A stretch of DNA of 64,000 nucleotides from a virus: positions 32,001-96,000 of the IMG/VR virus record IMGVR_UViG_3300037516_001783; one strand, given 5' to 3'. Below, one piece after another: positions 1 to 27,244 of the stretch. Position 1 is the first letter of the stretch. Every line of letters begins with the position of its first letter. A model generated the notes under the pieces. That model worked only from the letters and a program-made list of their open reading frames with translations, made no database searches and was not told the origin of the DNA. Position numbers and translations under genes: made by a program.

Positions 1-974
1 GTTGCGTCAGTATTTACAGCGATAGGAGTAGTACCATCAACAACAATTGGAAGAGGTGCTTTTGTATCAGTCGCAGATTCAGCCAATGTTCTTGGTTTCT
101 CTGGGTTCATGAATACATCCCACTCCAATTTGATTGGACCATATTGAGATTGGAAAGTTTGAACAGCTTGACCAACTTCACCAGCACGAACAGCATCAGA
201 GTTGATAGGAATGAATTTGTTACCGTAGAAACTAGCAACGAATTTCGAAAGAACTGCTGGAGGAGCAATTAAGTGAGTAGCAACACCGTAGTTTTCAACG
301 ATAGCTTCAGCACCCCTTTCAATGTAAACCTCAGTAAGTGGGGCACCTCTTAAGTCAACAACAACTTCTGAGTTGTAATATTGGTCTTTAGTTGAAAACA
401 AATCGTTTTGAGCATGCTGAGCATACAAACCGTTGAATTCAGTAGGGATGATTGCAGAGTTACCTCTTGTTAATGCTTTGTTTACTTTACGTAAAATCCA
501 AAGAGTACCGTTTTTCACTTCTCTTTCTACGATATTACCAACTGAAGCTTGAGTATTTACAAGACTCATTGGGTGAGTAACTGATTTAGTTACACCGTAG
601 AACTTAACTAATTGAGAACGTCTGATGTAAGTTGAGTCCTCATTTGATGGTAACTCACCTTCTAACAATGAACCTCCTCTGTCGTTACCATAAGAAGCTA
701 ATTGGTTAAACTCCTCAACTGTATTGTAAGCAGTTTTCTTTGGTATCATTTTCCAAAGTTTGATGTTACTTTCAGAGAAAGTAATAACTTTTAAAGTTTT
801 GTCTAAAGACTCAACTTTCAAAGCAGCACCACCTGCAGTTGTAGAGTTAGCAGTATCACGACCTGTGATAGCCTGAGCATCCAAAGCTTTGTTCAAGTTT
901 TGTAACTCTTCCATTGAAGCTCCATTTCCTGAAAAAACTTCGTTTGGCAAATAATCGTTTATGTTAATATTCAT
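1..974 (-). CDS. Major capsid protein, Twort/A511-like (3' end runs off window)
   Basis: Not in ORF track. Manual translation from ATG 974: MNININDYLPNEVFSGNGASMEELQNLNKALDAQAITG...GGAALKVESLDKTLKVITF...AYNTVEEFNQLASYG...YIRRSQLVKFYG...PTEFNGL...VVDLRG; typical Herelleviridae-type capsid motifs, directly after the protease. Confidence 0.92.
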   Translation of the reverse strand, partial: MNININDYLPNEVFSGNGASMEELQNLNKALDAQAITGRDTANSTTAGGAALKVESLDKTLKVITFSESNIKLWKMIPKKTAYNTVEEFNQLASYGNDRGGSLLEGELPSNEDSTYIRRSQLVKFYGVTKSVTHPMSLVNTQASVGNIVEREVKNGTLWILRKVNKALTRGNSAIIPTEFNGLYAQHAQNDLFSTKDQYYNSEVVVDLRGAPLTEVYIERGAEAIVENYGVATHLIAPPAVLSKFVASFYGNKFIPINSDAVRAGEVGQAVQTFQSQYGPIKLEWDVFMNPEKPRTLAESATDTKAPLPIVVDGTTPIAVNTDA

Positions 975-990: not shown

Positions 991-2604
991 TTATTGTAAA
1001 GTTATTCCTTTTTCCATTCTCAATCTTTGTAACACAGATTGACTAATTTTACCTCCAGTCTCAAAAGAAGTTAAAGCTTCAGAGAACTCTAAATCAACTT
1101 CACCTTTGTGGAAAGTAGCTTTGTCTAAGATATCCAAAACAAGCCTTCTATTTGTTAAACTAATAACATTAGAATCGCCACCCTTTTGAATGTCATTGTT
1201 AGGAACTTGACCACCGAAGTTTCTTTCTCTAACAGTTGATTGAGGGATAGACTTTCTTGTTATTGGTTGACTGTCAAATGATTTTGATAAATCACTGATA
1301 GTATCTCTTAAACCATTAAATGAAAGTTCAGTAGAATCTAAAGATTTCTTTAATTCACTATCTGCAGATTGAATTGCATCAATTTTTTCAGACAATGAAG
1401 ATAAATCTTTGTACATATTTTTCAGTATGACACCGATATGATGATTCTTCTCAGTAACTAAGGTAGAAATGTCAGAAATTGCTTTTAACAAAGGGTCTTC
1501 TTTTGTTTCAACTTCTTCCTTAACAATTAAACCTTTTTCTATTAATTCTTTCTCTAATTCAGCAAGTCTTAACTTTTCAGAATTAAAAGATTTAACAATA
1601 GAATCGTCATTACTTTCAATAACATCAGAATCTAAAGCCTTATCTAAAAGGTCGATAGCTTCTGAAATTGTTTTTTTAGTAATATTTTCACCTTTTTGCA
1701 TTGCACACTTTTCGATAAAGTTATAAAGCTTCTCAGCTTCTAACAGAGTTATAGCTGTTTTTTTAGTGAATATTTCTTCGTAACAACTTGCTTTTGACAT
1801 TTTATCTTCATCAAGCAAATCTAAATCGATTTCTTCATCTTCACCTTCCTCCTCTTCATTTTCTTCCTCCTCTTCTTCAACTTCACCTTTGTCTAAAATA
1901 ACTTCCTTACCATTAGCAGTTTGAAAGTCATTTTTCATTTTAGGTTTTTTCTTAGAAGGTTTTTTGAAGCTTTCAAGTTTCAGAGCATCACCTTGTCCTG
2001 GAATAGCAACATCTGTAGTTTCAGTCCCTGTTGTAACACCAGCAGAAAGGTCTTTCATTAACAGTTCAGTTTCATCGTCATATTCGTCTGAATAATCATC
2101 ATCACAACCACCCTTAATTAAATCCATATAAGTCTTAGGATTCTTAGGCATAAATGTGATAGCACATCCTGTAATCATCGCTTTTTTGATAATCTTAGGA
2201 TTAACTAAATCTCTGTCAATAGCTTTTCCCTCTATTGAAAAACCAAGATTTCTTGTAGACGAATTTTTCTTTAATGAAGTTGCTGTATTGTAAACTGCTT
2301 GAGCGATAGGATTGTCTGGATATAAGAATCCTTCAATGTACAACCCTTCTTTTGTAATCCTAGCTACTGTTGGTTCACCAATGATAGCATTTGGGTCATT
2401 TTTAGCTTGATGGTGGTAGTTTAAGAAACCACTCTTAAGGAAATATGAAACGTCGAAACCATTTGGGTCTAAAAATTCTCCATCTGCATCTTCAGCATTT
2501 GTAGAAGCTATACCACCAACTTTCATTACTTCATTACCTTTGTCATCCTTACCTTTGACAATGTCATCAAGTGGAACCCAAAACTTAAAATTCTTTTCTG
2601 GCAT
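991..2604 (-). CDS. Prohead protease fused to acidic/coiled-coil scaffold-like region
   Basis: N-terminal VGGIAST..EDADGE..F..GFLNYHH..IGEP..GLYIEG..LGFSIEG..ITGCAIT..PKNPKT; acidic linker, helical C-terminal half; adjacent to capsid gene. Confidence 0.88.
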   Translation of the reverse strand: MPEKNFKFWVPLDDIVKGKDDKGNEVMKVGGIASTNAEDADGEFLDPNGFDVSYFLKSGFLNYHHQAKNDPNAIIGEPTVARITKEGLYIEGFLYPDNPIAQAVYNTATSLKKNSSTRNLGFSIEGKAIDRDLVNPKIIKKAMITGCAITFMPKNPKTYMDLIKGGCDDDYSDEYDDETELLMKDLSAGVTTGTETTDVAIPGQGDALKLESFKKPSKKKPKMKNDFQTANGKEVILDKGEVEEEEEENEEEEGEDEEIDLDLLDEDKMSKASCYEEIFTKKTAITLLEAEKLYNFIEKCAMQKGENITKKTISEAIDLLDKALDSDVIESNDDSIVKSFNSEKLRLAELEKELIEKGLIVKEEVETKEDPLLKAISDISTLVTEKNHHIGVILKNMYKDLSSLSEKIDAIQSADSELKKSLDSTELSFNGLRDTISDLSKSFDSQPITRKSIPQSTVRERNFGGQVPNNDIQKGGDSNVISLTNRRLVLDILDKATFHKGEVDLEFSEALTSFETGGKISQSVLQRLRMEKGITLQ

Positions 2605-2847: not shown

Positions 2848-3702
2848 TTACTTTATCATCTTTTCATTAGTTTCATATTCTTCAGACTTTTCATCTTTTT
2901 TAGGTTTCATAACCTTACCATCCTCATCTTTGATTTTAAAATCACTAAATCCTCCAAGTTCATCTGCGATTGCTTTAGCACTTCTTGACTCTCCTTTTTT
3001 ATTTACCCAATGACCTTCACCCTTACATGTGTAAGAATAACCACCACCTGAAACAACACTTCCTCTACCAGCTTCCAACAATTGGTCTTTTATTTTTTCA
3101 TAATGACCTTTCACTTGCACCTCACCTTTAGATTGTTCTTTTACACCTTCTGGTTTATGAAAATCTACTTTTAAAGGAGATTTATCGTGTCTCTTACCAT
3201 TCTTATCTTTTAACTGTAGATAACCATCATGTTTGATGTTATGAATGGTATGTTCTTCACCTTTGTAGTTTATTTTATCTCCAGGAATTACTTCTCTTAA
3301 ATGTTCTTTTTCATCTTGGTGAGGAGTTCCAGGTTTTTTCCAAACAACTTGGTGATTACCTTTCTTATTGATTATATGGGTCAACACCAACCCATTTCCA
3401 CCGTGGAAAGCTTTTTCAATAAAAGAGTGTAAAGCCTTTTCTATCTCAGACTTTTCTTCTTCCTCTTCGTCAAGTTCTTCACCCTCTTCACTTTCCTCTT
3501 CCTCAGATTCAACTTGTTTTTTACCACCTTTCAAAAGTTCGATAGTCTTCAAAGATTTTTGTAAATCCTCTTCTGTTATCAAACCTTTGTCAAAATTACT
3601 CTTTAAAGTAATTTCCATTTCCTCAAATGAAGGTTGTTTTTTAGAAAAACTTTTTTCTAAAACAGTCCCTTTATAATTATCCTCAGTTACAAAATTATAC
3701 AT
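2848..3702 (-). CDS. Putative internal head protein, chimera of modules from 5575-6546 and 4272-5501
   Basis: First 60 aa 44/60 identical to 5575-6546; 99-aa IEKALHSFIEKAFHGG...SPLKV module shared with 4272-5501. Confidence 0.7.
   Translation of the reverse strand: MYNFVTEDNYKGTVLEKSFSKKQPSFEEMEITLKSNFDKGLITEEDLQKSLKTIELLKGGKKQVESEEEESEEGEELDEEEEEKSEIEKALHSFIEKAFHGGNGLVLTHIINKKGNHQVVWKKPGTPHQDEKEHLREVIPGDKINYKGEEHTIHNIKHDGYLQLKDKNGKRHDKSPLKVDFHKPEGVKEQSKGEVQVKGHYEKIKDQLLEAGRGSVVSGGGYSYTCKGEGHWVNKKGESRSAKAIADELGGFSDFKIKDEDGKVMKPKKDEKSEEYETNEKMIK
3148..3444. repeat. 297-bp coding repeat, copy 1 (copy 2 at 5133-5429)
   Basis: Near-identical 99-aa module in two genes; diverged third copy near 14770-15030. 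Confidence 0.9.
3523..3702. repeat. 180-bp coding repeat, copy 1 (copy 2 at 6367-6546)
   Basis: Shared 60-aa N-terminal leader M.NFVTE...LEKSF.KKQP...LLKGG. Confidence 0.9.
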
Positions 3703-3723
3703 ATAGCAGTCTTTATTTTCTTA

Positions 3724-3903
3724 TTAGTTGTTTTTCTTCTTACCTTTGTAAGATTCATAGATTGAATTAAAAACATAAGCACCAACCCAATAAATAAAAG
3801 CTACAATAAATAGCCAAGGTTGTTTTTCTGTTGTTAAACCTGTGATATACAAGATTGTAGCCAATGCAAAAATTGCCACAGTAATGATTGAATGTTTAAG
3901 CAT
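3724..3903 (-). CDS. 59-aa two-TM protein with basic C-terminal tail (holin-like topology)
   Basis: Manual ORF MLKHSIITVAIFALATILYITGLTTEKQPWLFIVAFIYWVGAYVFNSIYESYKGKKKNN; below ORF-track cutoff. Confidence 0.55.
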   Translation of the reverse strand: MLKHSIITVAIFALATILYITGLTTEKQPWLFIVAFIYWVGAYVFNSIYESYKGKKKNN

Positions 3904-4271
3904 ATAAGTATAATTAATAGTGAAATTCTTACTTGAAATTGATAAGGAATCATACTCCAGAATGTATCTATTGGTCCACTTCCTAAATGTTCTTTTGGTT
4001 TACCTCTTAAGTAATTTAGTAATGTATCAAATAGAAAACCGTATGACAATAATAATGATATGAATAACAAAAGATTGTAAGGTTTTACACTATTTGTTAC
4101 AACAATACAAATAGAAACAGTCAACCATGAAGTTGCTACTTTGTACTTTCCCTTTAAATCTATTTCATGTTCTTCTATAAGTAGGTAGTCACAAAATGCT
4201 CTACCTACTATAAAAAGAATGAAGCAACCTAAATTTAGGAATAAGTGTAATATGATATGAAGTGTTTGCAT
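3834..4271 (-). CDS. Multi-pass membrane protein
   Basis: About four hydrophobic segments; FDTLLNYLRGK..LG.G..D motif. Confidence 0.65.
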   Translation of the reverse strand: MQTLHIILHLFLNLGCFILFIVGRAFCDYLLIEEHEIDLKGKYKVATSWLTVSICIVVTNSVKPYNLLLFISLLLSYGFLFDTLLNYLRGKPKEHLGSGPIDTFWSMIPYQFQVRISLLIILICLNIQSLLWQFLHWLQSCISQV

Positions 4272-5501
4272 TTACTCTTTAGTTGGTAATTTGAAAATCA
4301 TTTCAAGGTCAGTAGTTCTACCTTTCCCACCCTTATCATCTTGCCATTCATAAACTTCACCTCTACCTTTAGAATCCAAGGTAGCACCAAACATTTCTTT
4401 CATAACATTCTCTATTTTAGAGAGGTCATTACCTTTAGGTCTACTCCAAGAATCAGATTGGTCTGATATTCTTAATTTTATATTATCACCTTCAACTGAA
4501 ACTCTACCCCAAGGGTCACCATTAGATTCATATTTATGTTGAGACAATCCAGCACGAATTATTCTTTCTGCTGCCCTATCACCACCTAATTGAATAGCTT
4601 CATCCAAAGCTTCTTTTGTTACAGGTTCACCATGGTCAACTCTGTGTTTATCAAATAATTTTTCTAACTTCTGTTTCTTTTCAATTTCAGGGTCAGGTTT
4701 TTCTAATTTTTTAGATTGTTGTTTTTGGTAATCTTCTATAGAAAGGAATGAGCCAAAATATGCATCACTATCCATTTTTCTGTATTCATTTACAGAACCA
4801 TCATTGTTGTAAACTCTTACAACTTTAAGGTCACCAAGACCACCACTTTGTGTTTTTACAGAAACAAGTTGTCCCTTTTTTAATTGAATAACACCTGTCT
4901 CACCTTTACCTCCATTTAGTGGTGCTGTACTCCATTTGAAATCAACATCTTTAGTTAATATTCTTGGGCTGTAATCATATTTGTTGAAAGCAACATCTCT
5001 CATTGCTCTGTCAATAGCAACTTGGTTAGGTTCAACAGATTCTACTTTAGGAGTTACACTTTCTACAGATTCTTTTCCATCTTCATCATGACCAACTAAC
5101 TCATCTTCTTCAACTTCCTTACCTTTAACATCCTCAGGTTTTTGGAACTCAACTTTTAAAGGTGATTTATCATGACGTTTTCCGTTTTTATCTTTTAACT
5201 GAAGGTAACCGTCGTGTTTTACAGCATGAACTGTATGTTCTTCACCCTTATAATTGATTTTGTCTCCTGGAAGCACTTCTCTCAAGTGTTCCTTTTCGTC
5301 ATGATGTACACCACCAACTTTTTTCCAAACAACTTGATGTTTGTTATTTTTGTTAATAATGTGCGTAAGGACTAATCCGTCCCCACCATGAAAAGCTTTT
5401 TCTATAAATGAGTGTAAAGCTTTTTCAATATTTTTATCTGAATTGATAATATTATCACCAATAGGTGAATTATCGTAGTGTTCTGGTGTGATGATTTCCA
5501 T
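4272..5501 (-). CDS. Putative internal head protein (IEKA sites, SH3/KOW-like module, unique C-terminus)
   Basis: Start moved to ATG 5501 (MEIITP) because the track start lies in a terminator; shared module with 2848-3702. Confidence 0.7.
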   Translation of the reverse strand: MEIITPEHYDNSPIGDNIINSDKNIEKALHSFIEKAFHGGDGLVLTHIINKNNKHQVVWKKVGGVHHDEKEHLREVLPGDKINYKGEEHTVHAVKHDGYLQLKDKNGKRHDKSPLKVEFQKPEDVKGKEVEEDELVGHDEDGKESVESVTPKVESVEPNQVAIDRAMRDVAFNKYDYSPRILTKDVDFKWSTAPLNGGKGETGVIQLKKGQLVSVKTQSGGLGDLKVVRVYNNDGSVNEYRKMDSDAYFGSFLSIEDYQKQQSKKLEKPDPEIEKKQKLEKLFDKHRVDHGEPVTKEALDEAIQLGGDRAAERIIRAGLSQHKYESNGDPWGRVSVEGDNIKLRISDQSDSWSRPKGNDLSKIENVMKEMFGATLDSKGRGEVYEWQDDKGGKGRTTDLEMIFKLPTKE

Positions 5502-5527
5502 GGTGAATTTTGGTGATTTAAAATAAA

Positions 5528-5567
5528 AAACAACAACTAACAATTCAAACTATGTTAGTTGTTGTTT
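5528..5567 (-). terminator. Intrinsic terminator
   Basis: 15-bp inverted repeat aaacaacaactaaca/tgttagttgttgttt with T tail. Confidence 0.75.
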
Positions 5568-5574
5568 AATTTTA

Positions 5575-6546
5575 TTAAGCAAATTTTTTGAAATCTAAAC
5601 CGTGGTGTTTTGCTAATTTCTTAGCTTTATCCCAATGAAATTTTGATTTAGCTTTTGAATCATGGTCAGTTTCACCGTAATTCTCTTTATGTGCTTCAGC
5701 ATTATCAGCATGGTTATATGAATGGTTGACATGGGATTCAATTAATTCAGAAGCCTTTTCTTTAGACAAAGATTTTTCCTCATCAGATGGTTCTGTTTTA
5801 GAATCCATTTCTTTCTTCTTATTTGAAGCAGTTTCTTTTGTTTTAGAAATTTGTTCTGGTGTTTGAGACTGACTCTTTTTCTCCTTATTTTTGATAGTCA
5901 TTGCTTTTCTCCAATGGTTATCAGCAGCATCATATAATTTTTGATATTCTGGTGAGTGGCGAGAATGTTCTCCAAATTTAGATTCCATTTCCTTCATTTT
6001 ATCTTCATTCACTTTCTGAGCATCAAGATGGTCTTGTGATGAAAAGTCACTATGGTTTTTTGAAGAAACAGAGTCATAAACATCCTTACCACTTGCTGTT
6101 TTACCTAATTTATTAGTACCAACTTTTCCACCTTCATGGCTTGCTTTAATTTTTTCAAGAGTTTCTTGTCTATCTTTTTTACCTATTTCGTAATGTTTTT
6201 CAAGATGTTTTGAAGCTTCTTCATTTGAATGGTTTCTTCCGTGTGCACCGAAAGCATCATCATGGTCTTTTGAAGTAAAATTAGCATGACTTGGGTGATT
6301 AAACTTATCATAAATTGGTTTACCACTTTTTGTGTGACCAATTACTTTACCACCTCTTGAACCTTCACCACCTTTTAACAAATCAATTGTTTCTAAGGCT
6401 TTGTTGAATTCCTCTTCAGTGATTAATCCTTTTTCAAAATTACTTTTAACAGTAATTTCCATTTCTTGAAAAGTTGGTTGTTTTTTTACAAAACTTTTTT
6501 CCAACACACTACCTCTATAATCTGCTTCTGTTACAAAATTATCCAT
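5575..6546 (-). CDS. Putative internal head protein, His-rich repeats
   Basis: LEKS/FNKA/LLKG sites then two G.T.SGK..Y......H..F...DH.DA repeats. Confidence 0.7.
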   Translation of the reverse strand: MDNFVTEADYRGSVLEKSFVKKQPTFQEMEITVKSNFEKGLITEEEFNKALETIDLLKGGEGSRGGKVIGHTKSGKPIYDKFNHPSHANFTSKDHDDAFGAHGRNHSNEEASKHLEKHYEIGKKDRQETLEKIKASHEGGKVGTNKLGKTASGKDVYDSVSSKNHSDFSSQDHLDAQKVNEDKMKEMESKFGEHSRHSPEYQKLYDAADNHWRKAMTIKNKEKKSQSQTPEQISKTKETASNKKKEMDSKTEPSDEEKSLSKEKASELIESHVNHSYNHADNAEAHKENYGETDHDSKAKSKFHWDKAKKLAKHHGLDFKKFA

Positions 6547-6551
6547 TGTTA

Positions 6552-6989
6552 TTAATTTATATTTGAAAACTGCTTAGACATTATTGAACCATCCCTTATG
6601 ATTTGCTGTAATAAAGTACTTTCTCTAGGAGTTGTCGGTACTTTCCCATTAGAATTAGCTTTATCTATCAAATTAGTGATAAAATTCTTTGATTCTACCT
6701 GATAAACTCGTCCTCTTAAACCTTTTAAGTATTCTAATGAATATTCTTTACCAACACCATTAAATACTTTCCCCTCACTCTTTTTACAGTTCACACAAGA
6801 TTTATTACATTTGAAGTTTGCTATTAACTTTTCAATCTCACGATTTTCGTTAATACAATCTCTAATTAAATCTAATATGTTATGGTCTTTTGAGGACTTA
6901 TTTTCTTGAATATAATTGTTGTTAAATAACAACCTATCTTGAAGTTCTTTTTTAGACAAACTTTCAAGTGTAAAAAGAGAAACTTGCAT
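6552..6989 (-). CDS. Hypothetical protein in head cluster
   Basis: Contiguous minus-strand ORF; no motif recognised. Confidence 0.6.
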   Translation of the reverse strand: MQVSLFTLESLSKKELQDRLLFNNNYIQENKSSKDHNILDLIRDCINENREIEKLIANFKCNKSCVNCKKSEGKVFNGVGKEYSLEYLKGLRGRVYQVESKNFITNLIDKANSNGKVPTTPRESTLLQQIIRDGSIMSKQFSNIN

Positions 6990-8323
6990 TACTTGATTTC
7001 GTTAAATTTTATGTTGCCAATATGAGCATCATAATACTGTTTTTGAAGATTTTTGTTGTCTTCAATTTCACTTTTTAATTTATCTATTGTTTGTAAATAA
7101 TTTGTTGGTTTTTTTCTCTCTAAAATGTCAATAATATCTAACTTTTCCTTAGTAGAAACCTTAACAGATTTTAAAGCTTTATTCAACAAAATGATTTCAC
7201 TTTCTGATAAATTATGTTGTTTTTCTTTAGTCCTTAAAACATTATCTGGAGTTCTTTCAAGTAATTCTCCAGAAGGAGTCATAACTATAAAGCCGACATT
7301 TGTTTTTCTTATCAATACACCTTTTGACGGAACACCTTTAACAACACCATTTTCATCTTTTTTTCTTATGGTTAAATCAACATGGTCACCTACAGATAAT
7401 ACACCTCCAAGCTTTTTAGAAATTGTTTCTTCAACAGGTTTTTGCTTTTCAAAATCCTTTTTAATTTCTTCAATTTCTTTGTCTCTTTTACCATATCCAG
7501 GAAGTTCCTGTTTATTTATGGTTGTCCAATCACACTTGGTGTCTGTATAGAAATCACCGTTGTCTTGTAAATCTCCAAGTGTTTTGTATTCTCCAGAAGC
7601 GTCATAAAATTTACCATTCACACCCACAGCAACATGAACATCAGGTTCTCCTTCTGAACCGAACGAATGGTAGGTAGGTTTTAAACCTTTCTCTTCAAGT
7701 AGTTTTCCAAAAGCTTCAGCAAATTCATAACAACCACCACTCATGTACCAACCATCTTCCTTACCTTCTTTAAAGGTTTCTACTAAACTATAAGGGTCTA
7801 CACTGATATTAACACTGTTCTTATGTTTTATTTCGTTAAGGTCTCTGAGTACATTTTTAGGTTTTAATTCACCTGTTTTTCTGTCTCTAATTTGAGTTCT
7901 GATATTAGCTTTTACCTTACCATTACTTTCGTCTAATTTACTGAAAGTTCCTTCAACTTCAGTTCCGTCTTGTAATTTTAATAAAACAATATCACCCTTT
8001 TTGTATTTAGAACTAAGTAGTTTGTCTGGATTTATATGTTCTTTTGAATTAACATCTTCAAATGAACCTTTCCTATATTTCTGTTGGAATTTACTTACAT
8101 CAGTCTTATTAGGATTTATCCAATAGGTTTCCATAACAACCTTACCACCTCTAACAATAGGAGTTACAACCTTCTGTAAATGTGCTAAATTTCTCTCAGC
8201 CTTTTCAAGTTCTGAGATTTTACCATATTTGGAACAAACAATTAATGTTTCATAATCTTCATTAGAAATTACTAAATTGTCTAACGAAAGTTGTTTGAAT
8301 TCAGAAGGTTGTAAGAAAATCAT
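6989..8323 (-). CDS. Putative head protein with two KOW/SH3-like domains flanking a transglutaminase/papain-like domain
   Basis: ELEKA site; YKKGDIV and LSVGDHV beta domains; GGCYEFA...HVAV...FYDASG Cys-His-Asp pattern. Confidence 0.65.
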   Translation of the reverse strand: MIFLQPSEFKQLSLDNLVISNEDYETLIVCSKYGKISELEKAERNLAHLQKVVTPIVRGGKVVMETYWINPNKTDVSKFQQKYRKGSFEDVNSKEHINPDKLLSSKYKKGDIVLLKLQDGTEVEGTFSKLDESNGKVKANIRTQIRDRKTGELKPKNVLRDLNEIKHKNSVNISVDPYSLVETFKEGKEDGWYMSGGCYEFAEAFGKLLEEKGLKPTYHSFGSEGEPDVHVAVGVNGKFYDASGEYKTLGDLQDNGDFYTDTKCDWTTINKQELPGYGKRDKEIEEIKKDFEKQKPVEETISKKLGGVLSVGDHVDLTIRKKDENGVVKGVPSKGVLIRKTNVGFIVMTPSGELLERTPDNVLRTKEKQHNLSESEIILLNKALKSVKVSTKEKLDIIDILERKKPTNYLQTIDKLKSEIEDNKNLQKQYYDAHIGNIKFNEIK

Positions 8324-8324
8324 T

Positions 8325-8579
8325 TTAAGAGAATATTGATTGTAAAGCAGTAACCATTAAGAACTTATCATTAGCAGTTGGAGTTGTTATATCCGAAACT
8401 TTAAATTTTAAAGAATCAGATTGTCCAGAAATTGCTGCTATTGGTGAACAACATCTTGTAACTAAGATACAATCTTCGTTTGGATGCGGTAAAACATTTA
8501 CAGTTCCAGATACACCATAAATGACACCATTATCATTTATTGTTACTCTATTCGATGCTTTTGTGAATGTAATTGGCAT
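8325..8579 (-). CDS. Small beta-rich hypothetical (possibly structural)
   Basis: ORF track; Thr/Ser/Val-rich. Confidence 0.55.
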   Translation of the reverse strand: MPITFTKASNRVTINDNGVIYGVSGTVNVLPHPNEDCILVTRCCSPIAAISGQSDSLKFKVSDITTPTANDKFLMVTALQSIFS

Positions 8580-8582
8580 AAA

Positions 8583-9110
8583 TTAATTCTCTAAAGTTTG
8601 TACCTGTCTCATTGATAAAATGTACTCTTTATTTTGGTCTAAGTTTTTCAACAAAGTATCAACAATTTTCAATTCACCTTTACAGTTTATCATTCTGTAA
8701 ACAGCTTGATTGTGTGATTTGTAATTGTTTGCCTCAACTTGACCACTGATTGGAGATTTATTTTCACCGAACTGTGGAGCGTTAATTTCATTCCAATAAG
8801 TATATTCATCACCATATACCAATAAACCTTCCAACTCATCACAATCACAGTCTTCGTAATAAGGTTTGATAGAAGGTTGACGTTCTAAAACTCCAGAAAG
8901 TGCTGAAACAACTTGATTACAAGCTGAATATTCACCTTCAAGTTTCATTTTCTTAGCTTCCAAAAGAGAAATAATTTCACTACCCATTTTAGGGAATTTT
9001 AAACTATCGTCATAGATAAAACTTGACATACCTTTTTCAAGTTCATCTTTGTTTGAAAAGCTGTTATAGATATTTCTTCTAGTTTGCTCTATTTTTTGTA
9101 TCGCGTCCAT
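8583..9110 (-). CDS. Putative head protein
   Basis: DELEKG site after short leader; lies in head cluster. Confidence 0.55.
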   Translation of the reverse strand: MDAIQKIEQTRRNIYNSFSNKDELEKGMSSFIYDDSLKFPKMGSEIISLLEAKKMKLEGEYSACNQVVSALSGVLERQPSIKPYYEDCDCDELEGLLVYGDEYTYWNEINAPQFGENKSPISGQVEANNYKSHNQAVYRMINCKGELKIVDTLLKNLDQNKEYILSMRQVQTLEN

Positions 9111-9116
9111 TACTAC

Positions 9117-11171
9117 TTATTTAAAATTTATATCGTCTTCAATTACACCACCTAATAAATAATCAAATGCCTTTTTGATATTCACTTTCTTTAAACTCTC
9201 AGCATAATAATCTTTCCAATCTTCATATTGGTCTTGAGTTTCTTTTGGTAAATTTCCGAAAGTCATTTTTGCTTCTTTTATGTTACCTAAAGTTCTAACT
9301 TGTAAATCAGATTCTGGTAAGTTCTTTTGGTTCTTAACTAAAACGTCATACAACTCTTTGTTTTGTTCAAAGTTGTCATATCCGTCTCTTAATTTACCAT
9401 CCAACATTGTAGACATAGCATACAGCATTTGTTTTTTATCCAAATCTATATGTATAGGTTTACTTCTACCTTTAAGAGCAGCAGAGTCTTGGCTATCATC
9501 CAAACCTTTATTTGTAATGAAGTTTAACTTACCATGGAAATCAAATTCGTCTGGAATATCTTTAACATTTTCACCTGTTAAATCGGCTATCTTCTTTTTG
9601 AAAGTTGGTGTTATTGTTATCTTTGGAGTTTTACCTTCAAAGTTCTTAAGTAAGTTAATTGTTTTAGGATTAAACAACATACTATCACTGTCATCGAATG
9701 AAAGTAATGTTTTAGAACCCTCTTGTCCTCTATATTTATACAGATATGCAAGGAAATCACCGTAATTGAATCCCGTACCTTTCAATTCAACATAAGAACC
9801 GTTTGGATGCTCTTCTGGGTCGTAAGGTTGGTCTTTATTTATTTTGTCATAACCAAGTTCTCCCAATGCAGCTTTTTCTACATTGTATGATTTACCAACT
9901 CCTGCTTTACCACTAATTATTGTCATTAATTTAGGACTTTCGTCACTCATTAATGTTTTAATACTACCGATAATAGAATGAGCTGTTGAAGTGATTTCTC
10001 TTTTTTGATTATCGTCTAATCCTATACTTTGGTCACCGTTCCAACCAGCACCTGTTTTTGGATTATACTCACCATCCTTTAACTTTTGGATACCAAGTTT
10101 CTTTTTCTCGTCTTCAGAAAGTTTGGAAACGTCTACTTTTTCAGGTTTCTTAGTTTCTTCTTTAACCTTATCACTTTTCGGTTTTTCAGTTTTATCTTCA
10201 GAACCTTCTTTTGGATTTTCAGGTTTACTATCACCTTCTCCTTCAGCACGTTTATCATCAGGTTTAGAATCTTCTGTTTTATTATCAGCTTTTTTGTCAC
10301 CTTCCTTATTTTTATAAGGGTTTCGGTCATCTTCAGAATTTATGTATTCCTCACCTCTTTTAGCTAACTCTTTTTTTGCTGAATCAACTAAAATTCTTGC
10401 CTTTGGATTGTCATGTTCTTTGTCTAAAAAATTCTTTAAATCTTCAGTAGATGACTTTTTAGCATGAGATTCAACTTTTTTGTTATCCTGATAGATAGAA
10501 TGATAATCGTAATCAGAACTCTTGCCCTTTGGATTTTCAACCTTCTTATTAGACGGTTCGTTTGCATTATTATCTTCTTGTTTTGTGGTTTTAACTTCTG
10601 ATTGATTATCGTCATTTTTGACCCACTTTTTCATGTGTCTACCTAGCTTATCAACGATATCTTTGATATGTAGCTTACTCATGTTTAAACCCTTATTAAA
10701 CTCATCTGAATATGGGTTTGGTTGGGTTAAACTTGTAATGCTTTTTTCTAAATCTCTTTGATTAACAAAATCAAAATAATGGCTTAAAATTTCACCTTGA
10801 TTATCTAAGAAGTCAAATTCAGTTAAATCGTCATCACAAATAAGTTCATATTTATCATGTTCAAAATTTAGTATAGCAGATTCAACATCATACTCACCTT
10901 CATTTCTAACTAAAAAGTAATTAACTTCAAAATCTTCTTCACCGTTGTTTTCAATTGTTTTAAACAACAAAGAAATATCATTAGACTTTACATCTATTGA
11001 TATTTCTTCTTTTAATTCTCTTATTGCAGTTTCTATAGGCTCTTCACCGTCTTCAACTAAACCTCCTGGAAGGTTCCAACATAAATCTCCATAAGTTGCT
11101 GTAAAACTCCTTCTTAAAATAAGTACATTGGAATCCCAATCTGGTAAAATGGCTACAGAATATACGTTCAT
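9117..11171 (-). CDS. Nudix hydrolase - charged linker - AAA+ ATPase fusion
   Basis: Nudix box GGLVEDGEEPIETAIRELKEEISI; Walker A GKAGVGKS, Walker B LLSFDDSD, FHGKLNFITN, ALKGRS; start set at ATG 11171. Confidence 0.8.
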   Translation of the reverse strand: MNVYSVAILPDWDSNVLILRRSFTATYGDLCWNLPGGLVEDGEEPIETAIRELKEEISIDVKSNDISLLFKTIENNGEEDFEVNYFLVRNEGEYDVESAILNFEHDKYELICDDDLTEFDFLDNQGEILSHYFDFVNQRDLEKSITSLTQPNPYSDEFNKGLNMSKLHIKDIVDKLGRHMKKWVKNDDNQSEVKTTKQEDNNANEPSNKKVENPKGKSSDYDYHSIYQDNKKVESHAKKSSTEDLKNFLDKEHDNPKARILVDSAKKELAKRGEEYINSEDDRNPYKNKEGDKKADNKTEDSKPDDKRAEGEGDSKPENPKEGSEDKTEKPKSDKVKEETKKPEKVDVSKLSEDEKKKLGIQKLKDGEYNPKTGAGWNGDQSIGLDDNQKREITSTAHSIIGSIKTLMSDESPKLMTIISGKAGVGKSYNVEKAALGELGYDKINKDQPYDPEEHPNGSYVELKGTGFNYGDFLAYLYKYRGQEGSKTLLSFDDSDSMLFNPKTINLLKNFEGKTPKITITPTFKKKIADLTGENVKDIPDEFDFHGKLNFITNKGLDDSQDSAALKGRSKPIHIDLDKKQMLYAMSTMLDGKLRDGYDNFEQNKELYDVLVKNQKNLPESDLQVRTLGNIKEAKMTFGNLPKETQDQYEDWKDYYAESLKKVNIKKAFDYLLGGVIEDDINFK

Positions 11172-11203
11172 TGTTTTATAAAATAACAATAAAAATATAA
11201 CTG

Positions 11204-11422
11204 TTAAGGGTTAATTGGCTTATAACAAGTCTCTGGATTATCGTCAAATTTTCTTATAATATCTACAAAATCAGAGTATTTCATACCATGAACTTTGGAA
11301 AAATCTTCAGCATCCAAATCTTTAGATTTGATGTCAACAAGAAACTTCCAATTCAAATACAAGTCGTACTGATAATCTAAATCAGCCAATAAACCTGTTG
11401 AGTTCTCAAATCCACCTTCCAT
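11204..11422 (-). CDS. Small acidic protein downstream of GNAT gene
   Basis: 72 aa, Asp-rich, 7 nt after the stop of 11430-12833. Confidence 0.6.
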   Translation of the reverse strand: MEGGFENSTGLLADLDYQYDLYLNWKFLVDIKSKDLDAEDFSKVHGMKYSDFVDIIRKFDDNPETCYKPINP

Positions 11423-11429
11423 ATCGTAA

Positions 11430-12833
11430 TTAATCTAAATTAAGTTTTTCTTTTGATAACAATTTTTCAAAAGTTTTTCTTTGAATATCATTTGTTAAGT
11501 CTAACTCACCGTCCCAACTTGAACCTGAATTTTTAAAGAAAACATTTTGTTCATGTTTGTTTAATTTTTTAGCTAAAGATTTCAACATGTACCTGTCTCC
11601 AACTTTGTCTAATTCAATTGTACTAACACTGTTATTTATTTTGTCAAGTTGATGTTCAGTTGGGTGGAAATATATTTCATATTTGAATTTTATTTTATCA
11701 CCAACTTGTTTACTATCACCTATCCTTGTTACTTTATAATTAAAACTATCCTCTTCAGAAGGTACATAAGTATCTGAATCTTGATAGTCAAGTTCGTCTT
11801 GGAAAGTATCACCACTCAAATCAGCAGTTTTAACAACCCCATCTTTTGAAATGTACTTAATTTCAGGTTTTTCACCTACCTTATGTTCACAGAAACCTCT
11901 GGCAATTAAAGTTGGTTTTATAGAACCTGAATCATTACTTTTAACAACATATCTGATGAAATTTTCTCTCATCCTTTTAACGTCACTTTCTGAAGCTGAG
12001 AAACCCCAATTCCCCCAAACAGACACACCTGTAAGCACTTCACTTTGTGTTTGTGAATTTGCTTGTACTGAAATTTTCTTAACTCCTAACTCCTTGTATT
12101 TGTCATAAAAGTTAGACATTAACTTTCTAGCAAAGTCAGTATTTCTAAGTGTTTCAGAACAACCAAAACTTGAGTGGTAAACAGAACCATCTGGTCTAAT
12201 TACTCTTGAAATCTGAAAATGTTTTGGTTGGCTAAAACCAAACTCATCAGTTGAAGCAGAATCCTCAGACATGTGAACTCTTATTGTTCCGTCAGAATCA
12301 CAAAAGAACCTTTTGTCAGAAACATTTCTTCCATTAGTGTTAGGAATGTAACTATCTATCAATTCATTACAACCTTTATAAAGGTCTGCTATATCATGAC
12401 CTTCCCAATGTTTGTTAAAATTGTTAATAGAAGTTTGGTCTGATTCAACCCTTACATTTTTTAACTTCTCTAATGTAAGTTCTGGTTTTTTAACACCGTA
12501 AGCTTCATCTGTAATTCTATCAACTTGCTTTAACACTTCTTCCTTTTTAAATTGGAAGCTGTTACCTTTCTCAACCTGTTTTAATGAATGTGATATTACA
12601 GATTGCTGGTGAAAATATTCAGCTTTTTTCAATAACTTTTTAGCCAATTCTTTTTCAGTTGAAGATAACATTTTATCTTCATTTACAGCATTAATATCTC
12701 TAATTTTTACATAAATTATGTGAGAATTTTTATCAAGTTTTTGTTGATATTCAGGATTCCCCTTCTTATGTATATTTTGTAATCCACCTTTGACAATTAC
12801 ACTGTCAAAGGCTTTTTTCAATTCATCTTGCAT
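11430..12833 (-). CDS. Putative head protein with GNAT-like acetyltransferase domain
   Basis: VYHSSF...LRNTDFARKLM...YKELGVKKISVQAN...GVSVWGNWGF matches the GNAT pattern of phage polyvalent/MuF-fused proteins; N-terminal ELKKAF and IVKGG sites. Confidence 0.6.
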   Translation of the reverse strand: MQDELKKAFDSVIVKGGLQNIHKKGNPEYQQKLDKNSHIIYVKIRDINAVNEDKMLSSTEKELAKKLLKKAEYFHQQSVISHSLKQVEKGNSFQFKKEEVLKQVDRITDEAYGVKKPELTLEKLKNVRVESDQTSINNFNKHWEGHDIADLYKGCNELIDSYIPNTNGRNVSDKRFFCDSDGTIRVHMSEDSASTDEFGFSQPKHFQISRVIRPDGSVYHSSFGCSETLRNTDFARKLMSNFYDKYKELGVKKISVQANSQTQSEVLTGVSVWGNWGFSASESDVKRMRENFIRYVVKSNDSGSIKPTLIARGFCEHKVGEKPEIKYISKDGVVKTADLSGDTFQDELDYQDSDTYVPSEEDSFNYKVTRIGDSKQVGDKIKFKYEIYFHPTEHQLDKINNSVSTIELDKVGDRYMLKSLAKKLNKHEQNVFFKNSGSSWDGELDLTNDIQRKTFEKLLSKEKLNLD

Positions 12834-12834
12834 A

Positions 12835-15057
12835 TTATAATATTAATGAGTTAAATGCTTTTTCTATATCAACGTCTACAATGAATAAACTTCCCGAATC
12901 CAATGATTTCATTAATTTTTTAACAACATTTTCTTCGTTACCATTTTCACTCCTAAAGAAGTGCATACATTTAATAACACCTTCTTCGTTCTTGTAAGAA
13001 TTCTTAATTTTGTCTATGTTTTTAGCCATAAAATTAAGAGCATCTTTGTATTCACTGTAAGTGTAGTTCTGTCCTTTTAGGTTTGTAAATCCAATACCTA
13101 ATTGTTCTCTTTTATTTATAAGATATTTAGAACGCTCTATAAAGGTATCAGGAGTTTCCTTTATATTTGCTAACATACTTCTTGATTGAATTGGCTGTGG
13201 AGCATTATCTAATGAAGAAGTGATAAAAACACACTTACCTTTGAATTGGAATTTTTCTGGTAAGTCGTTTGGGTGAGTTATGCTTTTTGGGTCAACCTTT
13301 CCAGACTCTTCGTCAGTTTCATATTTCCAACCACCTTGTCTAAGAGCGTCACCATAAGCACCGTTATCTTCAAAGTCAGAAGGTTTAAAATCAGGTTTAT
13401 AACGACCTGTATTAACACTTGTCAACCAAGCAACTTCACCATCACCAGATGTATCTAATGCTCCTTTTAACAAACCTTGACCAAGATTGCTTTCTAAAAC
13501 CTTATCAGCAGAGTTGTCAAAAACAATTGTCTTAAAGTTATGTTTAAACAAAGTTTCGTATAATGATTTCTCTGTTAAACCACCTCCTGCTGAGGAAATA
13601 ACAACATATTGATTACTTACAGGTTCCTCACCATCTTCAGGTTCGTATTCTAAGTTTTGTTGTTTCTGTAATGTACAAACTTCATGAGAATTTTGCATAC
13701 CTTTTTGTTTTAAGTAGGTAGTAACATTATTCGCATTTGTATCAGCAACAACAGCACATTTAACTTGGTTTCCTGTTACCATATCTAAAGAGTTGTAAAA
13801 CGAATCAAAGTTTTCAACTATAGACATTTCAGGCTTATCTTTCAATAAAATCTTATCAGCTTCAACCTCCCATTTCATCCCCTTTTTAGAGAAGAAATCT
13901 CTGATAGCATTACACTTTGTTAAAGTTCTACCACTTAACTCCTCTAAATTTCTCCAATTTTTAGCAAAGTAATTAGCAATACTTTCTTTCTCCTCATCTG
14001 TAACTTCTACTTTATTACCTAATGCGTCTTGGAATTTTAGAGAACTGTTAATCTTACCATAATTAGGATTCTCGATTCCGTTAATCATTTTCCTACCATC
14101 ATGTAAGATTTTATCATTTAACAGGTCCCAAGTTTCCTTTTTAGTTAATCGTAAGTTTAAGTTATCAGAATTTGTTAAAATCCTTTGGAAATTTTCAGCT
14201 TTTGGTCCATGTTTTTCAGCTTGTTTATCTAAATTCACATTAGATATTAACATAACACTACCATCGAAGTCAAATCTTGGAGGAACACCATCAGAAGTTT
14301 TCTCATGTACATTACCACTTTTAGGGTTTGTAAGAGTTACACTTCCTGTGTTAGAAGATATTGAGGTTAAAATATTCAACATGGCTGGGTCATCAAAAAC
14401 CATATCAAAATCATCCAAAATAATCTTCTTATCTTTATTGTTATAAAGCATTTCAAAGAAACCTCCGGGAGTTGTACCACCTGTGAACTTTACAACATCA
14501 CCATTTTCAAGACCTTCTTTGATTTTTGTATTTTGTAATACAGTAAAAGTTTTACCAACACCACCTGAACCTGAAGCAATAGAAAGTCTAAGAGATTTAT
14601 CATCAGCAAAATTTGATACCATTTTCTCCCACTCAATCATCCTTTCAGCTGGAGAGCCATAAATATCATAATCTAAACCACCTTCATCTTCATCAGAAAC
14701 AACTTTTTTCTCACTTGGTTTAACTTCACCTTCTGGTGTAATTGGTGCACTACCTTCACCGTCATGAGGGAATACTAATTTGTTAGGTGATTTGTCATGA
14801 CGTCTTCCTGTTTGGTCTTTCAACTTAACATATCCGTCATCTTTAACACCAACAATTGTATGTTCTTCACCGTTGTATAAAGCAACATCACCTTCTTTAA
14901 CATGTAAATGTTCGTCAGTAACTTCATCCTTTTTTACCCAAGTTAATCTCTTGTGGATTCCATGAGCACCATGAACAAGTATAAATTTTGGAACCAACTT
15001 ACCACCGTGTGATAAGTCTGCAGCCTTCTCTATGTCTGTTTCTAAATTATTTAACAT
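12835..15057 (-). CDS. SH3/KOW module plus tandem AAA+ ATPase domains
   Basis: DIEKA at both termini; GSGGVGKT, IILDDFD, FDGSVMLISN; second domain IVFDNSAD, FKGKCVFITS, PIQSRS. Confidence 0.75.
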   Translation of the reverse strand: MLNNLETDIEKAADLSHGGKLVPKFILVHGAHGIHKRLTWVKKDEVTDEHLHVKEGDVALYNGEEHTIVGVKDDGYVKLKDQTGRRHDKSPNKLVFPHDGEGSAPITPEGEVKPSEKKVVSDEDEGGLDYDIYGSPAERMIEWEKMVSNFADDKSLRLSIASGSGGVGKTFTVLQNTKIKEGLENGDVVKFTGGTTPGGFFEMLYNNKDKKIILDDFDMVFDDPAMLNILTSISSNTGSVTLTNPKSGNVHEKTSDGVPPRFDFDGSVMLISNVNLDKQAEKHGPKAENFQRILTNSDNLNLRLTKKETWDLLNDKILHDGRKMINGIENPNYGKINSSLKFQDALGNKVEVTDEEKESIANYFAKNWRNLEELSGRTLTKCNAIRDFFSKKGMKWEVEADKILLKDKPEMSIVENFDSFYNSLDMVTGNQVKCAVVADTNANNVTTYLKQKGMQNSHEVCTLQKQQNLEYEPEDGEEPVSNQYVVISSAGGGLTEKSLYETLFKHNFKTIVFDNSADKVLESNLGQGLLKGALDTSGDGEVAWLTSVNTGRYKPDFKPSDFEDNGAYGDALRQGGWKYETDEESGKVDPKSITHPNDLPEKFQFKGKCVFITSSLDNAPQPIQSRSMLANIKETPDTFIERSKYLINKREQLGIGFTNLKGQNYTYSEYKDALNFMAKNIDKIKNSYKNEEGVIKCMHFFRSENGNEENVVKKLMKSLDSGSLFIVDVDIEKAFNSLIL

Positions 15058-15071
15058 TACCTTATATTTTA

Positions 15072-16634
15072 TTATTCAAACGGATTCTCACTATCATCTG
15101 TTGGCATATCAGAATAATCTTCTTCACCATCTTCAGGTTGTACTTCACCACCTTCTTGTTCACCACCCATACCCATTTGTTGTGCAGCCATTTTGAATTG
15201 TGAGTAAGTACTTGACATAACATTATCTGCAGCTGGGTCTTTAATTTTTGGATAACCAAGTTCTTCTCTAACTTCATTTAAAGTTGCAAAGTTGGTTACT
15301 TTCTTAACTGCCATATCCAATTCCTCTGACTGACTTAATGCATCTATTCCAACGAACGATAAATAATAATCCTTATCTAATTGGTTTACCACATATTTAT
15401 TTAGTCTGGAAGCTATGAATTTTAAAAGTGGGTATAAACCTTTGTCCTTACTATGTTTTAATTTACCTTCATTATTACTTTCAAATAATGCTCTGTTTTC
15501 AGCTCCACCACTTTGTGAGAAACCTATTTCTTCTGGAGATATACAGTAAATTGCACAAGCTGTTTTGATAAGGTAATCTTGCCAAGCCTTAAACTCCATG
15601 TCTTTATTGGCAGTTTGAAGGTTGATGAATTCCATCTTTCCAGCTTCCATAACAGGAGTCTTCCAAGCATTATGAACTCCAGAAACCATTGCTTGCCACT
15701 GTTGTTTAAATTCTTGGATTTTTGCTGGTGAAACTGAACCGTCTACACGAATAATACCTTTAGGTGCTGAACCTTGTGAGAAGAATCTTCTGTTATACTC
15801 ATCTGACCATAACATAGAAGTTATTGTTGTTACAAGTTCTTCAAGTTCTGAAACTCCGTAACCAAAATTATGAATATCACTTTCTGGATTTCTAACACCA
15901 AAACATAATTCCCAAGGATAAAAATCTGCTACAACCTGACCATTGTCTACTTGACAAAATGACGGATAATAACCTTTGATTTTTTCTTTGTTTTGGTTTT
16001 GATAACTATCATCATCAACACTATCAGATATCCTAAAAGTAGATGCGTCTGTGGCAATGAATTCTATTGGTAAACCTTTTCTGTTGTAAATAACCTCAAA
16101 AGTCAATTGGTCAAAAACTAATGAATCTCTTGTTACTTTTCTTATGAAACTGTCAAAATCATCTGCTTCCCAAGAGTTGTTTGTACCACAATTCAAAATA
16201 AATTGCGTTATTTCATCAACCCTAGCTTGTTCTGCTTTTGTTAATTTTGAGTTTTCCTTACCTCTTTTTAAAATCTTAAATCCTGTACTGAATTTATCCT
16301 TCTGAGGTTCAGCAAATGCGGCAACTTGATTTACCCTTGTCTTAATAATAGCACTAATAACAGGAACTCTTGCCATACGTTTTAAATTGTCGTATGACAT
16401 CCCCATAGCTTTATCCTTGTAACCTAAAGAAGTTGCAAAATCTAATGGGTCAATTAATATAGATTTTCTATCAGAAAGTTCTCTGTTCTCTATGTATTTA
16501 CTTGCGATTGCTTGTGCTTTTACTAACTCATTTGGGTCTGTAGAAGATAGTGCACTGCCAACCAAAGACATTTTCTTAGCTAATATCTTTTCCTCTAAAG
16601 TATTTAAGATGTTTATTTTTTCTATTCTACCCAT
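15072..16634 (-). CDS. Portal protein
   Basis: AIIKTRVNQV, FIRKVTRDSLVFDQLTFE, RNPESD..FGYGVSELE, YNRRFFSQGSAPKG, KDMEF, ISPEEIGF, SKDKGLYPLL, TLNEVR: Twort-like portal motifs. Confidence 0.93.
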   Translation of the reverse strand: MGRIEKINILNTLEEKILAKKMSLVGSALSSTDPNELVKAQAIASKYIENRELSDRKSILIDPLDFATSLGYKDKAMGMSYDNLKRMARVPVISAIIKTRVNQVAAFAEPQKDKFSTGFKILKRGKENSKLTKAEQARVDEITQFILNCGTNNSWEADDFDSFIRKVTRDSLVFDQLTFEVIYNRKGLPIEFIATDASTFRISDSVDDDSYQNQNKEKIKGYYPSFCQVDNGQVVADFYPWELCFGVRNPESDIHNFGYGVSELEELVTTITSMLWSDEYNRRFFSQGSAPKGIIRVDGSVSPAKIQEFKQQWQAMVSGVHNAWKTPVMEAGKMEFINLQTANKDMEFKAWQDYLIKTACAIYCISPEEIGFSQSGGAENRALFESNNEGKLKHSKDKGLYPLLKFIASRLNKYVVNQLDKDYYLSFVGIDALSQSEELDMAVKKVTNFATLNEVREELGYPKIKDPAADNVMSSTYSQFKMAAQQMGMGGEQEGGEVQPEDGEEDYSDMPTDDSENPFE

Positions 16635-16708
16635 CACAGTTAATTAAAAACAAAACACAGTAAAATTCACCTGTTTTAAAAAATATAACTGTTTGTATGG
16701 AAACAATT

Positions 16709-26933: not shown

Positions 26934-27244
26934 GATTCCTCTAATTTATTTTGTCCATTCCAGCTTACTAATTTTTCATCCTCTGTGAGGTCAACCATTT
27001 CAAAATAACCTAACTCTTGAACGAGGATTAACTTTTCATTTAAATCCTTAAAAGCTTCAAAAAATTTACTACAACAAATATCCTCACCTTGAATTGAAGC
27101 TTTATGGCATGTGAAGTGTGTAGGATATGAATTGTCTTTTGGGTTGTTACAATTTTCAATAATCTCTTTTGCTCTTTCTACAGATACAATTCTGTCTTTG
27201 GTTAGTAAGCAATTTTTACAAGGTTTATTGTAGACTTTTAACAT
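26900..27244 (-). CDS. Cys-rich putative metal-binding protein
   Basis: PCKNC...FTCHK...ICC pattern. Confidence 0.65.
   Translation of the reverse strand: MLKVYNKPCKNCLLTKDRIVSVERAKEIIENCNNPKDNSYPTHFTCHKASIQGEDICCSKFFEAFKDLNEKLILVQELGYFEMVDLTEDEKLVSWNGQNKLEESWKKKSLEMDN

Follow-up and report, generated by a model that had tools for sequence, protein, structure and literature searches.

We analysed a run of 13 open reading frames (ORFs) inserted between the portal gene and the prohead protease-scaffold gene of an uncultured phage. Most of the array proteins that bear a shared lysine-centred motif appear to be head-internal proteins processed by the prohead protease, a reading to which we assign a probability of about 0.58. 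The array lies in a 64,000-nucleotide stretch (hereafter the window), bases 32001-96000 of the 107,935-bp IMG/VR virus record IMGVR_UViG_3300037516_001783. That the array proteins also act as injected effectors is held with lower confidence than head-internal processing, being plausible for some ORFs and unproven for all. Cleavage, packaging, ejection and the role of a β-domain described below are what we infer from these sequences. An earlier, sequence-only reading of this DNA had proposed a modular packaging system that loads enzymes into the head for ejection. The motif, its placement, its conservation and the fusion of an array module to the protease in relatives speak for such a system, whereas a short tryptophan-containing tag or removable leader was not supported, and 'enzymes' beyond a NUDIX domain are leads only.

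A gene array inserted into an SPO1-like head module

The window is the head module of an uncultured SPO1/Herelleviridae-like myophage, whose host is probably a member of the Bacteroidota. All of its genes lie on the minus strand, at a G+C content of ~31%, and homologues of a Herelleviridae-type portal, prohead protease and HK97-fold capsid protein are all three present. By tblastn, the portal shares 38-45% identity with its counterparts in Herelleviridae and in the cultured Chryseobacterium phage MA9V-3, and residues 1-162 of the protease match phrog_1028 (head maturation protease, E 4e-47). The major capsid protein (MCP) matches SPO1 gp6.1 (PDB 9vel, E 7e-75) and the phage 812 capsid protein (E 2e-19), and is 46% identical to the MCP of Bacteroides phage DAC19. 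A PDB sequence search with the protease as query found nothing. Along the minus strand, the portal is followed by the 13 array ORFs (2848-15057), which fill the 12.2 kb up to a 537-amino-acid (aa) protease-scaffold fusion and the MCP gene, which runs past the window start. The head genes that frame the array are as follows.

15072..16637, minus strand: portal, the upstream border of the array; site LVK40|A, conserved in relatives.
991..2604, minus strand: prohead protease (residues 1-165, phrog_1028) fused to scaffold; mimic of the capsid N-arm after LMK184 (1945-2064).
K322, K338, K374, K420, K441 and K495 of the protease-scaffold protein, minus strand: strong sites, as motif matches.
3..974, minus strand: MCP, of which the window holds the N-terminal 324 aa, the remainder being upstream; predicted propeptide, residues 1-29; predicted cut LNK29|A, with the K codon at 888-890; 9vel match with LNKAL conserved.

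Arrays occur at the same place in the relative L006/G001 and in MA9V-3, and a shorter one in DAC19; their content varies strongly between close relatives. The L006/G001 portal is 57% identical to that of the window over the full alignment and 56% in the best tblastn segment. Twort and P100 have no array. Because their portal, protease, scaffold and capsid genes are adjacent, the 12-kb array would be an insertion typical of a side branch of Herelleviridae-like phages.

A probable lysine cut rule in capsid protein and scaffold

The sequence-only reading held that Twort/A511-type capsid proteins are matured after a lysine. Chain lengths from phage 812, together with a Φ-x-K motif (Φ, hydrophobic residue) in the Twort orthologue, bear this out. 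The phage 812 capsid precursor has 463 residues (5lii) and the deposited mature chain 439 (9row), 24 fewer, with the P of PDTQ as mature residue 10; the cut is documented only through this deposited chain length. On the 463-aa Twort orthologue, the mature N-terminus maps to S25, directly after V-M-K24. P100 has A-L-K24|S (the bar marks the cut) and another Staphylococcus myophage has L-S-K23|S. The window capsid protein has LNK29|A at the matching position, ahead of the conserved N-arm, and SPO1 gp6.1 carries the identical site (LNKAL).

The scaffolds of Twort, P100, MA9V-3, L015 and DAC19 carry between 4 and 18 copies of Φ-x-K|[S/A/G]. The 532-aa protease-scaffold ORF of MA9V-3 has 18, where ~4 would be expected for the three head-core ORFs of that phage together. 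The window protease-scaffold protein has 14 loose matches against 2.4 expected, in line with the earlier count of more than ten. It is credible, by homology, that the Lys cut of the capsid protein extends to the window phage, and it is on this basis that we infer a cut in the window proteins.

Directly after a Lys site (LMK|D), the window protease also carries a mimic of the capsid N-arm (residues 181-220, 1945-2064). Such mimics directly after Lys sites are found in the Twort, P100, L015 and P0139 proteases as well; the window mimic aligns with that of P0139 and resembles the protease tails of Twort and P100. The mimic is likely a docking device for the protease in the prohead. Our literature searches found no paper on the structure of SPO1 gp6.1 or on Lys-specific prohead cleavage in Herelleviridae.

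Candidate cut sites at termini and linkers of array proteins

The motif strings quoted in the sequence-only reading are all present at their places on the minus strand, including LNK|A at capsid K29 and LVK|A at portal K40. Terminal or linker sites were likewise found in the eight array ORFs for which they had been claimed (740, 467, 690, 175, 444, 323, 423 and 284 aa). In the head block, the loose motif [ILF]xK[ASG] occurs 46 times, against 19.4 expected from shuffling, and in the rest of the window 62 times (47.2 expected). The tighter form [ILF]xK[AS][FLI] occurs 20 times in the head block, with 2.2 expected, and 9 times elsewhere in the window, with 7.3 expected. Because the tighter forms post-date our first look at the data, we added an unbiased scan of all a.bc 4-mers. 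The two most enriched head-block 4-mers were L.KA and I.KA (odds 5-6, p ~5e-4 each; 57 patterns tested).

The sites are also unevenly placed. A Φ-x-K site falls within the first 50 residues of 7/12 array ORFs, compared with 18/135 other ORFs of the genome (Fisher p=8e-4). The sequence-only reading had considered that the motif might be equally frequent at the termini of other Lys-rich ORFs. At N-termini this is not so (9/61 such ORFs); at C-termini, with all other ORFs as the comparison, the loose motif is not enriched (2/12 array ORFs versus 14/135). A longer form, K-[AS]-[FL]-[DNHQ]-x-Φ-Φ, occurs 7 times genome-wide against 0.56 expected, and every copy is either terminal or flanked by a site on each side. 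The neck/tail module, outside the window, has a 141-aa ORF (L005:7708-8133; genome 27708-28133) whose C-terminus is the LEK|AF..LL tail found also in the 740-aa ORF. The array ORFs are listed here in order of window position.

2848..3702, minus strand: 284-aa ORF; leader module A (3523-3702), acidic linker, sites K89 and K97, β-module B (3145-3411), short C-terminal part.
3724..4271, minus strand: two overlapping membrane-type ORFs (59 and 145 aa), hydrophobic, with 0 sites.
4272..5543, minus strand: 423-aa ORF (likely true start ATG 5501); leader, sites K41 and K49, β-module B (5130-5396), folded C-terminal domain (residues ~320-423).
5575..6546, minus strand: 323-aa ORF; leader module A (6367-6546), two Gly-rich/TKSGK-type units (~6229-6387 and 6004-6174), the first directly after LLK58|GG.
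6552..6989, minus strand: 145-aa ORF, no terminal site in the motif scan.
6989..8323, minus strand: 444-aa ORF; LEK41|A, then a hairpin-like stretch (8111-8182); weak YunG-like Pfam match below cut-off.
8325-8579, minus strand: 84-aa ORF; site at K7, not conserved in L015.
8583-9110, minus strand: 175-aa ORF; site LEK26|G.
9117..11189, minus strand: 690-aa ORF (likely start ATG 11171); NUDIX, linker sites K149 and K166, short W hairpin (10620-10685), AAA-type domain, C-terminal tail after IKK673|A (9120-9170).
11204..11422, minus strand: 72-aa ORF, no site in the motif scan.
11430..12833, minus strand: 467-aa ORF; 7-residue leader, LKK7|A, 8-residue peptide ending in IVK15|G; body possibly GNAT-like.
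12835..15057, minus strand: 740-aa ORF; 11-residue leader with predicted cut at IEK11|A, β-module B (14758-15024), two AAA-type domains, LMK717|S, 7-residue tail after IEK733|A (12838-12858).

The arrangement of sites follows the domain layout. In the 284- and 423-aa ORFs, an IEK|A pair stands just before a shared domain, and in the 690-aa ORF, K149 and K166 separate the NUDIX domain from the remainder. The 284- and 323-aa ORFs have several sites inside a common 60-residue leader (module A), part of which resembles a SHOCT motif (weak Pfam match); its FxK-G-L strings may be structural and not cut sites. The 284-aa ORF is 73% identical to the N-terminus of the 323-aa ORF and 78% identical to the module of the 423-aa ORF (BLAST; hidden Markov model (HMM) E 3e-46). 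Leaders as signal peptides or secretion signals were rejected, as they have no hydrophobic core.

Sites recur in relatives

Every terminal or linker site of the 740-, 467-, 690-, 175-, 444-, 423-, 284- and 323-aa ORFs has a counterpart in the L006 orthologues (26-46% identity), in some cases shifted by a few residues. These include both sites of the 467-aa ORF. Most internal matches, including one in a Walker A loop, are not kept. The tail and sites of the 740-aa ORF are conserved in L006, P0005 and P0017, and several orthologues of this ORF end in the same K|AF..L tail. L006 has a protein with the layout of the 690-aa ORF (803 aa), and MA9V-3 a shorter version of it. In DAC19, N-terminal sites are found in 4/6 array ORFs versus 17/74 others (p=0.04). 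The annotation of MA9V-3 includes a phage-borne tmRNA and a ClpX-like gene (L013:22766-23124, 26938-27777), which may be relevant to hydrophobic C-terminal tails.

A module shared between array genes and prohead proteases

The 323-aa ORF belongs to a family with 185 homologous clusters. Its repeated unit is Gly-rich, with a TKSGK-type motif and a downstream DH-x-DA motif, and is present in 1-3 copies per protein. A simple pattern search found Φ-x-K|[G/A/S] within 22 residues upstream of 113/163 units. In homologues, the unit is joined to ferritin-like, NUDIX, PF20106 and other parts and, in 7 among the 120 clusters listed of the 185, it lies inside a prohead protease. One such protein, P0139, has a protease domain 44% identical to that of the window (E 9e-34) and a unit 60% identical to residues 54-106 of the 323-aa ORF (E 3e-16); the unit is followed by a capsid-arm mimic, which comes after an LNK|A site. 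In some relatives the unit thus belongs to the protease-scaffold polypeptide, whereas here it is encoded separately, behind a putatively cleavable leader; it is best explained as a head-internal component that the protease would release. Our literature searches found no paper on the TKSGK-type unit.

A putatively retained β-domain downstream of the predicted cuts

The sequence-only reading had described a short W-containing module after the site in five ORFs. In the 284-, 423- and 740-aa ORFs, the W strings are the first hairpin of a common ~90-residue domain (module B; BLAST 44-78% identity, HMM E 1e-34 to 1e-46), and for these three the claim stands. The W stretches of the other two were not supported as module B homologues: that of the 444-aa ORF gave hhalign E 0.21, and the 690-aa hairpin gave E 0.005 at a probability of 7%, a hint only. 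The NUDIX proteins of L006 and MA9V-3 show the same succession of a site and then a W/K hairpin. The W is not invariant, being Y in L006. A 149-aa hairpin ORF of MA9V-3 had no homologues at E <1e-3.

We modelled module B with AlphaFold2. A single-sequence model of the 423-aa ORF was poor for this module, and a 19-row alignment was needed. With it, residues 41-125 reached a predicted local distance difference test score of ~90 or above and were modelled as a β-hairpin followed by an SH3/Tudor-like barrel; the stretch with the two sites is a low-confidence helix before the module. A VIA-wide fold search gave only generic small barrels, all at Z <8 (best Z 6.6), with the 53BP1 tandem Tudor at Z 6.3 over 86 residues. 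A Foldseek search of module B against the PDB and BFVD gave nothing below E 1e-3.

Module B is rare. A profile search of 1.84 billion representative proteins gave only 23 matches, the module was absent from 50,697 GenBank phage records, and scans of IMG/VR found one related contig only. In ~20 homologues, it is always near the N-terminus, with [LIV]xK[AG] just upstream and unrelated C-terminal regions of 100-650 residues. Its position after the predicted cut means that it would remain attached to the mature protein and would be neither a short W tag nor a removable leader. A role in docking or DNA contact is our guess.

Predicted functions of the array proteins

Searches of all array ORFs against Pfam, PHROGs and NCBIfam returned only NUDIX and phrog_1250; the rest were blank. 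NUDIX in the 690-aa ORF (Pfam E 5e-12) is the only firm enzyme call, whereas the AAA-type and GNAT-like assignments are leads. The array has three phrog_1250 domains, a phage AAA-type family that includes T4 NrdC.10; the 740-aa ORF matches it at E 7e-35, and a PDB sequence search with this ORF as query found nothing. In an Atlas structure search, the neighbours of the 467-aa ORF were GNAT-like acetyltransferase clusters (TM 0.43), which we take as no more than a lead. In one of these neighbour clusters, 13% of members carry Phage_Mu_F, the sole tie to MuF-anchored cargo proteins. Pfam gave no Phage_Mu_F (PF04233) match in any array ORF or in a 311-aa ORF of MA9V-3, and for the latter a by-eye guess of a MuF-like protein was rejected, having no Pfam support.

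Other parts of the array are less suggestive of cargo. The membrane-type ORFs at 3724..4271 are probably not cargo. The MA9V-3 array likewise holds membrane ORFs; at the place that corresponds to window 3724-4271, it has three of membrane type and a weakly GH19-like ORF (L001:14819-16480). Part of the island may be a lysis cassette instead of cargo. The C-terminal part of the 284-aa ORF (2848-3133), a GGGYSYT..GHW..FSDFK-type stretch, also occurs in the otherwise unrelated homologue P0015, as another small shuffled module. For the C-terminal domain of the 423-aa ORF (4272-4580), many top rows of a fold search were tail-terminator (gpU-like) folds, at Z 6.3-7.9 from a single-sequence model, below the level that we would trust.

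A model for processing and its alternatives

In the model that we favour, the array is a ~12-kb fast-evolving island between the portal and protease-scaffold genes, and most of its larger proteins would be internal to the prohead. Along with the scaffold, they would be taken up into the prohead during its assembly. The serine protease of the prohead would then cut after Lys in Φ-x-K|[A/S/G], removing N-terminal leaders of 7 to ~96 residues, some of them made of the SHOCT-like module A. Cuts in linkers would separate modules, and short hydrophobic C-terminal tails would be clipped. The trimmed bodies would stay in the head with the DNA and probably be released into the cell at infection. Among these bodies would be AAA-type ATPase, NUDIX and possible GNAT-like domains as well as small repeat modules, and four of the proteins would keep an N-terminal hairpin with the SH3/Tudor-like domain.

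Several observations weigh against this model. A fourth module-B gene (P0003, 403 aa; genome 106.9-107.9 kb) lies outside the array. Because this gene runs off the record end, the record is either not strictly complete there or circularly permuted. Contig JACCEC011115521.1 has two module-B genes among homologues of replication genes. The array of MA9V-3 is not enriched as a whole (N-terminal sites in 4/13 versus 25/130, p=0.30); its four site-positive array ORFs are exactly its hairpin-bearing ones. In the window, four array ORFs lack a terminal site, namely the membrane pair and the ORFs of 72 and 145 aa. The motif counts are affected by the post hoc definition of the tighter forms and by paralogy among the 284-, 323- and 423-aa ORFs, which inflates them; some of the sites counted fall within conserved folds or the SHOCT-like FxKGL motif, where cutting is improbable. 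Finally, the leaders have no single consensus, unlike the capsid targeting sequence of T4: they are dissimilar, ranging from 7 to ~96 residues, and only the 284- and 323-aa ORFs share module A.

A different account of targeting is possible, although we lean against it. Here, the K|A-F-x-x-L-I tails and the 8-residue two-site peptides would be anchors that bind capsid or scaffold and are severed to free the cargo, and the β-domain would not be the targeting element. The strong genome-wide excess of the tail form and its invariable position at a terminus or between two sites fit this account, as does its conservation at the C-termini of the L006, P0005 and P0017 orthologues. The capsid-arm mimic that follows a Lys site in the protease further suggests that this lineage uses capsid-binding peptides near cut sites. 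However, the 7-residue tail may merely be a prime-side recognition element of the protease, and the neck-module ORF beyond the head block ends in the same tail.

The favoured model of processed head-internal proteins also has a more ambitious form, which we regard as rather unlikely. SPO1-like Bacteroidota phages would have evolved a modular capsid-loading toolkit distinct from that of T4, joined by Lys sites, with modules placed either in the protease-scaffold or in separate genes. It would comprise the SHOCT-like leader, the hairpin and SH3/Tudor-like domain, the Gly-rich/TKSGK unit and cleavable K|AF..LI tails. The β-domain and tails would dock large enzymes, and AAA ATPases, NUDIX and GNAT-like enzymes would ride into the head and then into the next host.

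Alternatively, the protease may cut the array proteins while these serve as extra scaffold or core, acting in head size, DNA organization or protease delivery, and are then degraded or left as inert filler. The acidic low-complexity linkers and closely spaced sites of the 284- and 323-aa ORFs do resemble scaffold, as does module A, which is similar to scaffold segments. Many modules are small, non-enzymatic and repeated, and both the TKSGK-type unit and a DUF module (PF20106) are parts of protease-scaffold polypeptides in relatives. Even so, we consider this unlikely: NUDIX and AAA-type domains in 80-kDa proteins would be improbable scaffolds, Twort and P100 assemble heads without such an array, and the strong variation in content between close relatives fits arms-race cargo better.

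A further possibility is that no processing occurs and the array is an ordinary accessory region, its EKA and EKS strings stemming from helical linkers rich in Lys and Glu and from common descent of shuffled modules. This draws on the AT-rich genome and its Lys-rich proteins, a background slightly above shuffle expectation (62 versus 47), the paralogous copies, the lack of significant enrichment in the MA9V-3 array and the module genes elsewhere in these genomes. It is very unlikely, given that only 9/61 Lys-rich non-head ORFs have an N-terminal site, that the same motif marks the documented capsid cut and, across five lineages, dozens of positions in scaffolds, that sites persist where flanking sequence has diverged, and that the protease fusions would be hard to explain.

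Relation to known capsid-cargo systems

If the favoured model is correct, protease-coupled cargo loading of the kind seen in T4-like and jumbo phages would also operate in the SPO1/Herelleviridae-type head, there with a Lys cut rule. The portable loading modules would be new, and Bacteroidota phages, those of gut Bacteroides among them, would hold a reservoir of injected proteins that await study. A Φ-x-K|A/S site near a terminus would then be a practical predictor of virion cargo in this lineage. The protease-module fusions of relatives show how cargo genes may bud off a protease-scaffold gene. Trypsin, too, cuts after Lys, so that exactly these maturation events would escape standard virion proteomics, and this blind spot may be why they went unnoticed.

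Herpesvirus scaffolds (M-site) and encapsulin cargoes (cargo-loading peptides) attach to an HK97-fold shell through a short peptide at a terminus, which in herpesviruses is cut off by the maturation protease. The likeness to the K|AF..LI tails is one of analogy, as we found no homology. Herelleviridae (Twort/812, A511/P100 and SPO1) have a homologous portal, protease and capsid protein and many Φ-x-K|S sites in the scaffold, and their capsid propeptide is removed after Φ-x-K, as is predicted here; there, the head genes are adjacent without an array, whereas here protease and scaffold are fused and 12 kb are inserted.

Other phages load proteins into the head by different means. Phage P1 sends DarB, a very large enzyme, into its head by an N-terminal signal, for which the first 30 residues suffice (PMC9024508). 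The Dar proteins have no sequence relation to the array, P1 loading is stepwise via DarA/Hdf, and no shared protease motif is reported on P1 cargo. In phiKZ and SPN3US, the prohead protease trims numerous proteins inside the head at one shared motif, and they are ejected (PMC7411985, PMC10052503), but these are jumbo phages that cut after Glu, and their proteins are unrelated.

The internal proteins of T4 (IPI-III and Alt) carry a capsid targeting sequence that is removed by the gp21 protease (PMC3012670; PMC9024508, citing Mullaney & Black 1996). As in T4, the array proteins would have an N-terminal leader that ends in a protease site also present in the capsid protein and scaffold, a likeness seen at the sequence level only in the array (7/12 ORFs), and their bodies are diverse and fast-evolving. 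T4 cuts after Glu (L/I-x-E), whereas the array would be cut after Lys (Φ-x-K|A/S) by a Herelleviridae-type protease (phrog_1028). The array cargo is much larger (up to 740 aa), with additional predicted linker and C-terminal cuts and a β-domain retained downstream of the cut, and most of its genes are clustered between portal and protease. The array thus appears to be a variant of the T4-type capsid-cargo logic, in which the Lys cut, the retained β-domain, the cleavable tails, the very large cargo and the variable island would be new.

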